Source of the DNA: an uncultured bacterium
GTDB taxonomy: Bacteria > Fidelibacterota > UBA2242
Direction: 5' to 3'
Assembly (NCBI GenBank): GCA_964485745.1
Contig: CAZAKO010000002.1
Coordinates: 1 to 57,888 of the forward strand
DNA: 57,888 nt
In this document: positions 3,039 through 57,888 of the stretch, piece after piece
How the letters are laid out: every line of letters starts with the position of its first letter
Position numbering within the stretch: position 1 is the stretch's first letter
Program-made: the position numbers and the translations under genes
Notes under the pieces: generated by a model
Seen by the model: the letters and a program-made list of their open reading frames with translations, nothing else
The model's database searches: none
What the model was told of the DNA's origin: nothing

Positions 3039-4094
3039 CTATACAATCCTGCTTACCCCGAAGGGATGGCTTCTGCCAAAAGACGATATAAATAAGTACC
3101 GTTTGACAGTCCTGCCACATTTCATTGCCTTGAATATTTCCCGGAAGACTGCGAACTTTATCGGGGCGTCTCCATCCTGGGTATCAATTTTAGTTATTCC
3201 GGATTCAATCGTGAAAAAATCAACCATCATTTTCAAATATTGATCTATAAACATACCGGGACCATGTTGACCACCCGGAACTAAAACAAATTGACCTGGC
3301 ACGTTTGCTTTCTGCAAAGCAGCAAAGAGCAATTCGCTGTTACAATGAGGCACTAACGGGTCCGCATCGCCATGCAGAATCAGAAAAGACGGGTCGTTCG
3401 GGTCTACATAAGTGATCGGATTCGCCAGCGCACATTTGTCGGGATTGTCCTGAATCGGTCCGCCGATGAGGCTCGATTCAGGGGAATCGGGAGCATCATG
3501 AACCATGCCGCTTTCGCAGGAGTCCATTACCAGGAAGTCAGTCGGTCCAAACCAGTCCACGACCGCATCAACTGCACTGCTGTAGGTTAAATATTGACCA
3601 AGATTGCCCTCTAAATCATAGGTTGTGGAACCAATGGTATAATGTTTGACAAACCTGGAAGTCCCCGCCAGTGCCGCCAGGTGTCCGCCTGACGAGCTTC
3701 CGGTTATGCCAACGAAAGAAGTATCAAGCTGATAATTCCCGGCATTCGCCCGGATAAAACGAATCACGGCTTTAATATCATTGATTTGAGCGGGAAATTT
3801 TGCATCGGCACTCGAACGGTGGTTGGGCATGACTATGGCAAAACCGGCATCCAGTAAGGCTTTACCTAAAGTCGCCAGATCAGTCCCTTTTAGATTGTTA
3901 CCAAACCACGCGCTGCCATAGATTACCACCACAACCGGATAGGTTGGCTTTACAACTTTAGGTAGATAAATATCCAACCGGTGATATACCAGTGAGTCAC
4001 CCACATAATCCAAATCCTTCCAGCTTTTAGAGTATTGCTGGCTAAAGCAATGGATGCATACTACAGCAAAAACAAATATTGTAGAGCATTTCAT
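3039..4094 (-). CDS. Secreted alpha/beta-hydrolase (carbohydrate esterase-like, BD-FAE/CE10-like)
   Basis: Signal peptide MKCSTIFVFAVVCIHCFSQ. Oxyanion region 'VVVVIYGSAWFGN', nucleophile elbow 'GITGSSSGGHLAA' and 'HGDADPLVP' (Asp/His region). The last ~45 aa resemble no domain I know. Confidence 0.7.
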   Translation of the reverse strand: MKCSTIFVFAVVCIHCFSQQYSKSWKDLDYVGDSLVYHRLDIYLPKVVKPTYPVVVVIYGSAWFGNNLKGTDLATLGKALLDAGFAIVMPNHRSSADAKFPAQINDIKAVIRFIRANAGNYQLDTSFVGITGSSSGGHLAALAGTSRFVKHYTIGSTTYDLEGNLGQYLTYSSAVDAVVDWFGPTDFLVMDSCESGMVHDAPDSPESSLIGGPIQDNPDKCALANPITYVDPNDPSFLILHGDADPLVPHCNSELLFAALQKANVPGQFVLVPGGQHGPGMFIDQYLKMMVDFFTIESGITKIDTQDGDAPIKFAVFREIFKAMKCGRTVKRYLFISSFGRSHPFGVSRIV

Positions 4095-53799: not shown

Positions 53800-55985
<2,186 letters not shown>

Positions 55986-56029
55986 GATCAGTGGATACTC
56001 GCTCTAACTTCATCCATCCAAAAGACCTT

Positions 56030-57775
56030 TTAGTCTCCCAGCCAGGCAGAAAGATTTTCCGCGGGAATCAGGATCCTGGCGATGTTCGGTCCCTGCCATG
56101 CGACGGATAAATTGTCGCCGCCACCACCTTCTTTTTGAACTGCTTCGATATAATAGAATTTCCCTGCTTCCAGTTGAAAATTAGCAGAATGCTGGAAGGT
56201 AAATTTACTGTATTCCTGATAGTTGGTCCATTCATCAACTCTAGCAATTAATGTTTTTTGGTTCGGATTCTCGTTCATACTAAGATAGAGCTGGGAAGCA
56301 TCATCGCTTGCGATCCAGAAGGAATAGGTGCCGCTGGTGTCCGGACGAACGTATCCCCTTAGACGCGACCCATAATTATCACCAAAGGCCTGCGGTCCAT
56401 TCAGCTGCTTAATGTATCTCCTGCCAGTCGGAAAATCCGGGAATCTCGGATCGGAAATTAAATTGCTTATTGACGTTCCAGGCATGTCACTCCACCATTC
56501 ACGAAGAATAAACCCAGTGTAGGATTGGACGGCGTGAACCACAATGGTATCCGCAAATTCGTTAGCCGTATCCCTGACAATTAAAAGCGTATTGCCTTCG
56601 GCCTGAGCAAGGAGAACGGCGTCAGGATAACCAGCTGCAACCGGCTCGATGTCCACAATTTCCGGATCCGCACAAGACCACTCATACATTGGAGCGGCAT
56701 TTCCACCTTGGGATAAAGCCTTCACTGTTCGGGGCACGTTTACACCGATTATCAAGGTGTCGATTCCCCCCGGTTCAGCCGGCAACCAGTTAACAGTTAT
56801 CCCCGTTTCCAAATCCTCAAATTGGCTCGCATCAAATGAGTTTTTCAGCGTGGCACCTGGTCCATTATAGGCATTGGCAGAAATGGACATTTCAACTTCC
56901 TGTGCATCCGTTCCTCTCAATGAAGATTGATAGGAGATCCAGTAATAACTATCCGCAAATTTGGCGATTGCTGCCTGGATTTTGGTGAAAACTTCGGCAA
57001 GTTGACTCGCATCAGAGACGACAATCCATCCACGATTTCCAGCCCGATTCAGGAAATCCTGATCTAGGTCACTGCCAAGACCGATTGTGTAGACGTTGGC
57101 TAGCTGGGAGGTATAGATGACCTCTTCTTTGCTCTTTTCATTTTCGGTGTCATCCCCGGCAGTAAAGACCACCAAATTCCCCTGCTGAACGACTCCCAGA
57201 TTGTAACCCTCACTGTACAGATTTAATCCGCGCGAGATGGCACCGTACAGATTTCTCTCTGACGAACCAGCTACGATCCCCTCAATTGCACTAATCAATT
57301 GGTCGAGGTCACCTGTAAAATCTTGAACCATGTTCAATGTTTTTGAAAAAGTATAAATTGCGATGGACTGCATTGGATCAAGATTACTTACAAATGCCAG
57401 AGCGGCTTCTTTTAAGGCATCCAGACTGACTCCCGTGCTGATATCCAACAGCAAGACTGTGTTCAAGCGGTAGTCGAACGTATTCCGCTTACGGACTAAC
57501 AAGGCTACCTTTTTCGGATCGATGGACACTCCGTTTTCCTTGATTGAAAAGCGGTCCACGGTTAATAAATCCGCTGCCATGCCGGAAGTGTCGAGTACAT
57601 TACAGAACAGGTGCACTTCATGCGGAGGAGAGGTCACTACACCATGTGACAGGATGATATACATGCCCACATCCGGGACCGGGTTCTGATCTTCGGGCCC
57701 TACATTATCGCCCTTGTCACACCGGATGGAGCAAAGGGTCACAATGACCAGGATAAAAAGAATTGCATTTCTCAT
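56030..57775 (-). CDS. Secreted or lipoprotein VWA-domain protein with BIg2-like and C-terminal PA14 domains
   Basis: Signal peptide MRNAILFILVIVTLCSIRC. VWA core 'NTVLLLDISTGVS...IAIYTFS...LVVFTAGDD...VYTIGLG', where the MIDAS reads DISTG rather than DxSxS. BIg2-like 'VKALSQGGNAAPMYEWSCADPEIVDIEPV'. PA14 'FGDNYGSRLRGYVRPDTSGTYSFWIASDDASQLYL...GKFYYIEAVQKEGGGGDNLSVAWQGP'. GGAGG is upstream of the ATG. Confidence 0.75.
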   Translation of the reverse strand: MRNAILFILVIVTLCSIRCDKGDNVGPEDQNPVPDVGMYIILSHGVVTSPPHEVHLFCNVLDTSGMAADLLTVDRFSIKENGVSIDPKKVALLVRKRNTFDYRLNTVLLLDISTGVSLDALKEAALAFVSNLDPMQSIAIYTFSKTLNMVQDFTGDLDQLISAIEGIVAGSSERNLYGAISRGLNLYSEGYNLGVVQQGNLVVFTAGDDTENEKSKEEVIYTSQLANVYTIGLGSDLDQDFLNRAGNRGWIVVSDASQLAEVFTKIQAAIAKFADSYYWISYQSSLRGTDAQEVEMSISANAYNGPGATLKNSFDASQFEDLETGITVNWLPAEPGGIDTLIIGVNVPRTVKALSQGGNAAPMYEWSCADPEIVDIEPVAAGYPDAVLLAQAEGNTLLIVRDTANEFADTIVVHAVQSYTGFILREWWSDMPGTSISNLISDPRFPDFPTGRRYIKQLNGPQAFGDNYGSRLRGYVRPDTSGTYSFWIASDDASQLYLSMNENPNQKTLIARVDEWTNYQEYSKFTFQHSANFQLEAGKFYYIEAVQKEGGGGDNLSVAWQGPNIARILIPAENLSAWLGD

Positions 57776-57815
57776 CTCTTACCTCCAATTTGACATCAAA
57801 TGCATAATGTCCTTT

Positions 57816-57888
57816 TTAAAACGTCGCACCAACGGTGAACATGGAATAATTGCCCAAGAGACCGATTGATTTATAGGCATAATCCAAC
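57816..57888 (-). CDS. 3' end (last 24 codons) of an outer-membrane beta-barrel-type protein; the rest lies outside the window
   Basis: The reverse frame reads '...LDYAYKSIGLLGNYSMFTVGATF*' (TAA at 57818-57816). Hydrophobic residues alternate and the terminal residue is Phe, as in OMP beta-signals. Only 24 aa are visible. Confidence 0.4.
   Translation of the reverse strand, partial: LDYAYKSIGLLGNYSMFTVGATF

Follow-up and report, generated by a model that had tools for sequence, protein, structure and literature searches.

A VWA/PA14 protein encoded behind a PorV-like barrel in a candidate four-gene outer-membrane operon of uncultured KSB1-type bacteria

To our knowledge, polysaccharide uptake in relatives of the Bacteroidota is understood almost wholly through SusC/SusD. 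In Bacteroidota loci, SusE/F-type surface glycan-binding lipoproteins are encoded after SusCD. Some barrels of the FadL-like superfamily, to which PorV belongs, transport substrates. In the T9SS attachment complex of Porphyromonas gingivalis, large proteins and barrels occur as PorZ–PorQ and PorU–PorV pairs (PMC8754138). PA14 sensors of the RsgI type bind xylan and pectin via calcium, and in lectin-type PA14 domains (Flo/Epa/RsgI) the sugar-binding calcium is held by an Asp-cis-Asp motif, a loop-2 Asn and a stabilising Tyr (PMC6852018). Here we compare with these systems the upstream end of a 57,888-nucleotide stretch of DNA from an uncultured bacterium, hereafter the window. Our analysis suggests that this end holds genes three and four of a conserved outer-membrane operon of four genes; full-text searches of the literature on the cassette and its lineage gave no published description of it, and the only TonB receptors mentioned in the Caldithrix genome paper are those for B12 and thiamine.

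Transcription at this end of the window runs on the minus strand. The last 23 codons and stop of an outer-membrane barrel gene of the PorV/PorQ family (57816–57887) read ...LDYAYKSIGLLGNYSMFTVGATF, with the stop TAA at 57818–57816. A 40-nt spacer (57776–57815) carries a Shine-Dalgarno GGAGG (57782–57786) 6 nt ahead of the ATG at 57775, which opens a 581-aa gene (56030–57775) for a protein with VWA and PA14 domains, single-copy in this genome. Frame and coordinates thus bear out the sequence-only reading, which had described the tail of an outer-membrane protein followed 40 nt later by a 581-aa frame. It had also allowed that a terminator might separate the two genes; no terminator-like site was detected on the minus strand of the spacer. 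The same holds for the minus strand of the 310-nt gap (55720–56029) between the VWA/PA14 stop and a dual-esterase gene (53800–55719), with the CAZyme array following, and a public contig, L010, shows the same gap and no called gene in it.

The barrel gene continues on a second contig, C94 (L003:1–1068), which starts with the final 55 nt of the window, an overlap that allowed the locus to be extended upstream. This join is confirmed by L010, a public, contiguous and near-identical contig (99% identity between its VWA/PA14 protein and the window's), on which all four cassette genes precede the esterase, GH97, esterase and GH3 genes known from the window, with their order kept. The cassette consists, all on the minus strand, of a TonB receptor, a 1186-aa protein with a C-terminal domain (CTD), the PorV/PorQ-family barrel and the VWA/PA14 gene, so that the receptor and the 1186-aa protein lie directly upstream of the barrel. 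Neither a TonB receptor nor SusD is encoded inside the window; the receptor was found just past its end.

The receptor (912 aa) has a CarboxypepD_reg N-terminal domain, a plug and a barrel, with a TonB box (ETVVVTAS, or EAVVVTAS in C94) between the N-domain and the plug; its Pfam scores (Plug, 38.4 bits; TonB_dep_Rec_b-barrel, 111.1 bits) place it among the TonB-dependent receptors. Against the SusC/RagA model TIGR04056 it reaches 20.6 bits, under the cut-off of 368, and no SusD_RagB match was found in the genome, whose completeness is 87.65%. The arrangement resembles SusC/SusD (RagA/RagB) in that the TonB receptor, which combines an N-terminal extension with plug and barrel, is followed by a large surface partner, and in that multiple copies per genome head CAZyme clusters, with a LacI-type regulator, present in related loci, often in front. 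It differs from SusC/SusD in the absence of SusD from the genome, in a receptor far under the SusC/RagA cut-off, and in a partner of T9SS type that has its own private barrel and is not a lipoprotein.

This partner, the 1186-aa protein, is secreted and unannotated and consists of conserved domains rich in calcium motifs, a variable module and a strongly conserved C-terminal domain; Pfam and PDB sequence searches returned no match to it. Its tail is the most conserved part (mean identity 76%, versus 38% for residues 771–1060) and weakly matches the PorZ tail, and the tails of its paralogues match that of PorU. A Foldseek search with the predicted structure likewise placed PorZ (5m11) and PorU (6za2) as its top two matches, both weak (E about 1e-5, TM below 0.15). 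The protein belongs to a family of about 1200 aa with at least 1846 clusters, every one labelled 'hypothetical', which is multi-copy and occurs in 53 of the 61 sampled genomes of the phylum. Together with the receptor and barrel it forms a triad, of which this genome has about eight copies that lack a VWA/PA14 gene. Triads also have a SurA-like lipoprotein as a recurrent neighbour, and the genome encodes the T9SS components PorU (the sortase) and SprA.

The joined barrel protein (full gene 353–361 aa) matches NF033709 with 202.9 bits (cut-off 90) over profile positions 1–326 of 326, and Pfam PorV (PF19572) with 40.4 bits (cut-off 27), which decides the earlier choice between a TonB-dependent transporter and a PorV/FadL-like barrel for the PorV-like alternative. 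It fails the equivalog cut-offs for PorV (NF033710, 90.1 versus 250) and PorQ (NF033711, 81.9 versus 220), and the best PorV-like and PorQ-like genes of the genome lie elsewhere, on contigs C1 (184 bits) and C20 (150 bits). Above the cut-off, the genome has 13 PorV-family genes, eight of them beside triads. As in PorZ–PorQ and PorU–PorV, a PorV/PorQ-family barrel here adjoins a large protein with a PorZ/PorU-like C-terminal domain, a tail from which we infer that the barrel may bind a T9SS protein, through that protein's C-terminal domain, at the cell surface. In contrast to those pairs, the barrel has a TonB receptor as its invariable companion, belongs to a set of about eight extra copies, and is encoded in carbohydrate loci rather than with secretion machinery. 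Given its constant partners, receptor and 1186-aa protein, and some eight co-occurrences with them that lack VWA/PA14, the barrel is best read as a predicted anchor for the large protein, not as an importer.

The VWA/PA14 protein starts with a signal peptide running to Cys19 (57719–57775; alignment A1), followed by a disordered Lys/Asp/Gly linker (pLDDT <50 for residues 16–34). Twenty homologues keep Cys19 without exception, and several of them show L-S-A-C (P0017, P0019, P0020) or S-G-C; the window copy's lipobox, S-I-R-C, is atypical in its Arg at −1 when set against [LVI][ASTVI][GAS]C, and its Asp at +2 is not conserved among homologues. The protein is a probable lipoprotein, with Cys19 as the putative lipidation site. 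It ends inside PA14 and has no match of the Por_Secre_tail/TIGR04183 type, on which grounds we rejected it as T9SS cargo.

A β-sandwich at about residues 36–100 (57476–57670; AlphaFold strands 39–96) precedes a VWA domain at about residues 101–276 (56948–57475), which is supported by the alignment, by Pfam (PF00092, residues 107–263, 32.4 bits versus a cut-off of 23.8), by PDB sequence matches (8s05, 5a8j) and, for the Rossmann-like fold, by Foldseek matches to ArnB, integrin I-domains and vWF A3 (target TM 0.7 for the latter two). TIGR03436 (acidobact_VWFA) matches residues 52–233 with 53.9 bits, under its cut-off of 81. The metal site of the VWA domain is degenerate. The sequence-only reading had noticed 'DISTG' in place of an intact MIDAS; LLLDISTGVS is indeed present, with D111 and S113 kept and the second Ser replaced by G115, and the canonical Thr and Asp are lost as well (R174 in ERNLYGA, A206 in FTAGDD). 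These three losses among five residues are conserved across the VWA/PA14 family, and a distant stand-alone relative, P0024, keeps all five (DNSLS/T/D). The degenerate site is consistent with the proposal that the VWA domain serves as a scaffold rather than as a metal-dependent binder.

Between VWA and PA14, the AlphaFold model shows two β-sandwich/Ig-like spacer domains (residues ~277–346 and 347–418; 56522–56947), with the sandwiches themselves at about residues 277–345 and 349–416. The assignment of this region to a BIg2-like family did not hold: Pfam Big_2 (PF02368) gave no match to the protein at E≤1, the only Pfam match in the region is a weak one to T2SS-T3SS_pil_N (E 0.035), and the modelled fold is a generic Ig-like sandwich. 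Whole-chain Foldseek, dominated by VWA matches, is uninformative on these spacers.

The C-terminal PA14 domain occupies about residues 419–581 (56033–56521; Pfam PF07691, residues 461–573, 39 bits, cut-off 24). Its D491-D492 pair is near-invariant, as is an acidic Gly-rich loop, K-E-G-G-G-G-D (548–554), that aligns with calcium-binding loop 2. Of the solved PA14 sequences, those of the RsgI sensors, 6qdi and 6qe7, come nearest. With these proteins of cellulolytic clostridia, RsgI3 (6qe7) and RsgI4 (6qdi), the domain has the Asp-Asp motif in common (PMC6852018), but identity is low, loop 2 carries a Glu, and there is a single PA14 rather than a dyad, with no anti-sigma module. In the HMM alignment with 6qdi, the loop-2 Asn becomes E549 and the stabilising Tyr becomes Gln or His, substitutions that leave lectin activity not assured. 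A PA14 insert was confirmed in all three GH3 genes of the locus, as had been read from the sequence; a common origin of these inserts and the PA14 of the VWA/PA14 protein was rejected, as no tblastn similarity was found genome-wide at E≤1e-3.

What is new here is a single-copy VWA/PA14 gene that follows the barrel, tracks a single triad clade, and encodes a degenerate MIDAS with the Asp-Asp pair kept. The gene stands directly after the barrel in 9/9 contexts of homologues with at least 48% identity, and the spacer between them is 15–41 nt long with a GGAGG in 7/7 related loci examined. VWA/PA14-linked triads form one clade (support 98/99) with one nested loss (L015), and this lineage without the gene marks it as dispensable; the protein is best read as an optional fourth component of the triad. 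The expectation that barrel and VWA/PA14 genes would sit beside CAZyme clusters in relatives held in part: the two remain neighbours and CAZymes follow the cassette in most loci, but one locus has the pair without CAZymes nearby. The cassette mostly stands at the head of gene clusters for plant polysaccharides, in KSB1-type bacteria that are uncultured and lack a classic SusD.

On these data, we propose that the VWA/PA14 protein is a surface glycan-binding lipoprotein with an accessory role and a position like that of SusE/F, a putative function to which we give a probability of roughly 0.5. Like SusE and SusF, it is encoded after outer-membrane transporter genes and before enzymes, is probably a lipoprotein, is lineage-specific and dispensable, and consists of a chain of Ig-like/β-sandwich domains ending in a domain of carbohydrate-binding type. 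Unlike them, it has VWA and PA14 in place of the SusE/F folds, no sequence relationship to them was found, and its gene comes after a PorV-like barrel rather than SusD; its surface position and glycan binding are predictions.

An unlikely alternative, and the one that survives best, is that the protein is a general surface adhesin or lectin, for plant particles or other cells, that is co-transcribed by chance and stands outside any uptake complex. Its PA14 subtype typically occurs as tandem arrays within large adhesin-like proteins that carry T9SS tails, and homologues with 36% and 29% identity occur on their own, with neither a triad nor a CAZyme cluster nearby; the lineage that lost the gene and the locus without CAZymes point the same way. 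Chance linkage is, however, hard to square with synteny in all nine contexts, with the conserved short spacer and its ribosome-binding site, and with co-inheritance of a single-copy gene with one triad clade.

More doubtful still, in our view, is a periplasm-facing lipoprotein whose MIDAS-less VWA domain would scaffold the barrel, the receptor or T9SS cargo, with PA14 binding protein rather than glycan. Such a role would fit the family-wide MIDAS losses, the about equal conservation of all five domains and the Asp at +2 in the window copy's atypical lipobox, and the SurA-like lipoprotein by the triads suggests dedicated biogenesis factors. Against it, T9SS-tailed extracellular proteins carry the same PA14 subtype and the same VWA module, one of them fusing the VWA module to a ConA-like lectin domain, which argues that these modules work outside the cell; the +2 residue varies among homologues, and the Asp-Asp pair and acidic loop of PA14 are near-invariant.

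The sequence-only reading had suggested a possible SusCD-independent glycan-capture pair. Taken literally, barrel and PA14 protein would by themselves capture and import glycan without TonB, in place of SusC/SusD, which we now consider very improbable. This model has in its favour the absence of a TonB receptor from the window and could appeal to the transporting members of the FadL-like superfamily, but the locus extension contradicts it: a TonB receptor lies two genes upstream of the pair in 8/9 contexts, that is, on every contig that reaches far enough, and the barrel family recurs in this genome with the receptor and large protein in triads that have no VWA/PA14 gene. Finally, a polysaccharide sensor regulating the locus, like the PA14 modules of RsgI anti-sigma factors, is scarcely tenable, since although RsgI sensors are the closest solved PA14 sequences, related loci have a LacI-type regulator instead, and we rejected this reading for a protein with neither a transmembrane nor an anti-sigma domain.

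In the favoured reading, that of an accessory surface glycan-binding lipoprotein, the retained tail of the 1186-aa protein would dock on its private PorV-like barrel, as PorZ does on PorQ and PorU on PorV, and this docking would give the TonB receptor a neighbouring surface partner in this SusD-less genome. The VWA/PA14 protein would join as an accessory subunit, lipid-anchored at Cys19, in which the metal-independent VWA domain and the two Ig-like spacers hold out the C-terminal PA14. This domain may bind plant hemicellulose, probably via calcium, so that the protein would act like SusE/F-type surface glycan-binding lipoproteins. More tentatively, the four proteins could make up one outer-membrane machine of an undescribed kind, a SusD-free counterpart of the Bacteroides 'utilisome' into which the MIDAS-less VWA/PA14 lipoprotein would have been recruited in this KSB1 lineage as a fourth, glycan-binding subunit; we regard this larger proposal as possible but less than probable.

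KSB1-type genomes have many CAZyme clusters yet no SusD, and at the head of each cluster stand a TonB receptor, a protein of the large unannotated family and a PorV-like barrel private to it. Should our model be true, parts of the T9SS would have been reused for nutrient-capture complexes, and the VWA/PA14 gene would illustrate the way in which these acquire accessory proteins that bind glycans. Its PA14 is a small, expressible domain through which the substrate of the locus might be found in an uncultured phylum.

On the minus strand, the end of the window is arranged as the sequence-only reading had described: the 3′ end of an outer membrane barrel gene (...LDYAYKSIGLLGNYSMFTVGATF, with its TAA stop codon at 57818-57816), a 40-nt spacer with GGAGG six nt 5′ of an ATG at 57775, and an ORF running from that ATG to 56030. 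This ORF encodes a 581-aa protein with VWA (residues 107-263; 32.4 bits against a Pfam cut-off of 23.8) and PA14 (residues 461-573; 39 bits against 24) domains. The BIg2 domain proposed for its middle did not hold up, since the Pfam search returned no Big_2 match and only a generic Ig-like sandwich is present. A consensus scan of the minus strand found no terminator-like site between the barrel tail and the VWA/PA14 gene, where a terminator was to have signalled an unrelated barrel, or in the 310-nt gap that separates the VWA/PA14 gene from the esterase gene at 53800-55719. An 87-aa ORF (55722-55985) lies in this gap, where no gene is called in L010, a near-identical public contig.

The window is a complete contig (C2) of a 2.46-Mb genome in 292 contigs, 87.65% complete. 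Its last 55 nt are the first 55 nt of contig C94, a word found in no other contig of this genome, and L010, with 99% identity in the VWA/PA14 protein, spans the same region unbroken with its genes in the window's order, showing that the join is real. L010 encodes, in order, a 497-aa lipoprotein, a 912-aa TonB-dependent receptor, an unannotated 1186-aa protein, a 353-aa PorV-family protein and the 581-aa VWA/PA14 protein, followed, as in the window, by the 639-aa esterase, GH97, a second esterase and GH3. In C94, the gene for the 1186-aa protein holds two 100-N scaffold gaps (at about 2344-2442 and 3736-3837), so that this copy reads 1099 aa with runs of X, and the 1186-aa L010 copy was therefore used for analysis.

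Over the full length of NCBIfam profile NF033709 (PorV/PorQ family, cut-off 90), the joined barrel reaches 202.9 bits; it also matches Pfam PorV, but lies far under the equivalog cut-offs (90 vs 250 for PorV, 82 vs 220 for PorQ, PorV2 likewise). Between the types left open by the sequence-only reading, it is thus a PorV-like barrel and not a TonB-dependent transporter; OmpA and porin assignments were likewise rejected. The genome has 13 PorV-family genes above cut-off, the most PorV-like (C1) and the most PorQ-like (C20) lying away from the window locus, and eight copies (C94, C28, C24, C7, C13, C21, C99 and C36) have a TonB receptor and a 1186-aa-type paralogue as neighbours. On C52 (1165-5935), a PorV2-like barrel (85 bits, NF052325) adjoins an incomplete second PorU-like gene (184 and 103 bits), and the two may form a second attachment module.

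The receptor comprises a carboxypeptidase-regulatory-like N-domain, a textbook TonB box (ETVVVTAS), a Plug and a TonB barrel, and falls outside the SusC/RagA family (20.6 bits, cut-off 368); SusD was not found in the 87.65% complete genome. The 1186-aa protein had no match in Pfam or PDB sequence searches. Its family counts 1846 or more clusters, each annotated 'hypothetical', with records from KSB1, 'Calditrichaeota' and Ignavibacteriales, and occurs in 53 of the 61 genomes sampled from the phylum, mostly in several copies. Its C-terminal domain is linked by several lines of evidence to PorZ and PorU, the two T9SS proteins that, in the attachment complex, remain on PorQ and PorV (PMC8754138): the final ~100 residues show weak similarity to the PorZ tail, paralogue tails match that of PorU, and the best two Foldseek matches of its model (mean pLDDT 73.8), both weak, are PorZ (5m11) and PorU (6za2). 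A PorU sortase (740 bits) and SprA are also encoded in the genome, along with dozens of sorting tails. The tail is the family's most conserved part (76% mean identity, 29% invariant columns), which would not be expected of a cleaved signal; mean identity is lowest over residues 771-1060 (38%). This pattern fits a retained docking domain beside a specificity module. Residues ~351-495 of the 1186-aa protein (gene at L010:4477-8037) are dense in invariant Asp/Gly/Asn motifs (DGIDNDDDGLIDE, GDDVGLDGVGP...) resembling thrombospondin type-3 or dockerin-type calcium sites, in a poorly modelled region (pLDDT < 50). Another recurrent neighbour of triads of receptor, 1186-aa-type protein and barrel is a lipoprotein of ~497 aa (lipobox LVGC; SurA_N_2 match weak), which lies upstream of the receptor, directly 3′ of the barrel or a few kb downstream (L010:12-1505; in this genome C28:11115-12557 and C24:22819-24243; L022:10257-11711; L025:4208-5665). 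It could serve as a dedicated chaperone or as a further accessory subunit.

The VWA/PA14 gene is single-copy, and none of its domains has a paralogue in the genome. A word-indexed search gave 22 full-length relatives, and an exhaustive profile search about ten full-length representatives at the 50% identity level. Cys19 is invariant in a 20-member alignment and several members carry a canonical lipobox, that of the window copy (S-I-R-C) being atypical. The AlphaFold model (mean pLDDT 77.7) shows a disordered tether, a β-sandwich (39-96), VWA (102-275), two sandwiches (277-345 and 349-416) and PA14 (423-577), with Foldseek support for the VWA fold (ArnB, integrin I-domains, vWF A3) and the PA14 fold (6qdi). 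The MIDAS is degenerate throughout the family, keeping D111 and S113, with the second Ser replaced by Gly, Thr by Arg ('ERNLYGA') and Asp by Ala ('FTAGDD'); all five residues are kept in a stand-alone, 29%-identical relative lacking PA14. Among solved structures, the closest PA14 sequences come from the RsgI4 and RsgI3 sensor domains, which bind xylan and pectin via a calcium ion held by an Asp-cis-Asp and a loop-2 Asn (PMC6852018). The Asp-Asp pair (491-492) is near-invariant in the VWA/PA14 family, but the loop reads K-E-G-G-G-G-D, with Glu in place of the Asn, so the domain may plausibly bind calcium and sugar. PA14 domains of this subtype are found in thousands of further proteins, frequently as tandem arrays with T9SS sorting tails, and the sandwich-VWA-sandwich module is elsewhere fused to a ConA-like lectin domain, BACON or FN3 domains and T9SS tails, which points to an extracellular, carbohydrate-facing role.

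We give a probability of about one half to the VWA/PA14 protein being an accessory glycan-binding lipoprotein of the cell surface that resembles SusE/F-type proteins in gene position and build; the barrel identity and triad assignment are much firmer. Less likely rival readings are a general adhesin, a periplasmic scaffold, for which the degenerate MIDAS speaks, and a sensor, for which the closeness to RsgI sequences speaks; the lectin-fused and T9SS-tailed relatives point to the cell exterior and to carbohydrate. The SusCD-independent, TonB-independent pair of barrel and VWA/PA14 protein, as first proposed, is contradicted by the receptor and 1186-aa protein directly upstream of the barrel.

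In each of the nine contexts whose homologue has 48% identity or more, a PorV-like gene lies directly 5′ of the VWA/PA14 gene, and receptor and 1186-aa-type protein precede this barrel gene in eight, namely every contig reaching far enough. Spacers between barrel and VWA/PA14 genes are 15-41 nt, with GGAGG in every one examined, and a LacI-type regulator often lies 5′ of the receptor. Full-text literature searches aimed at this four-gene cassette and its lineage returned no description of it. The expected co-occurrence with CAZymes held at most loci, none being nearby at one; at 36% and 29% identity, the homologues are stand-alone genes. Downstream CAZymes are CE1, GH97, GH3, GH31, GH42, GH2, GH29 and GH95 at the window locus, and GH51 and GH95; GH42, GH95 and GH27; GH9 and GH95; or GH27, a GH127-like gene and GH43 at four others. 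The recurrence of GH95 in four of these five loci suggests decorated plant hemicellulose as a putative substrate. Besides xylan esterases, the window encodes, within 5497-50527, GH31, GH95, GH29+CBM6, GH42, GH2 and three GH3 enzymes with PA14 inserts, a set as suggestive of fucosylated xyloglucan degradation as of xylan degradation.

In the tree of the 1186-aa-type proteins, all VWA-linked triads fall in one clade (support 98/99), whose sister clade lacks the VWA/PA14 gene; a related locus without the gene (L015) is nested within the VWA-linked clade, indicating loss there. Other triads have enzymes or sugar catabolism genes directly 3′, such as GH9, or a fucose pathway with GH29. The triad is the core of these loci, to which the VWA/PA14 gene adds a fourth member, lineage-specific and dispensable.
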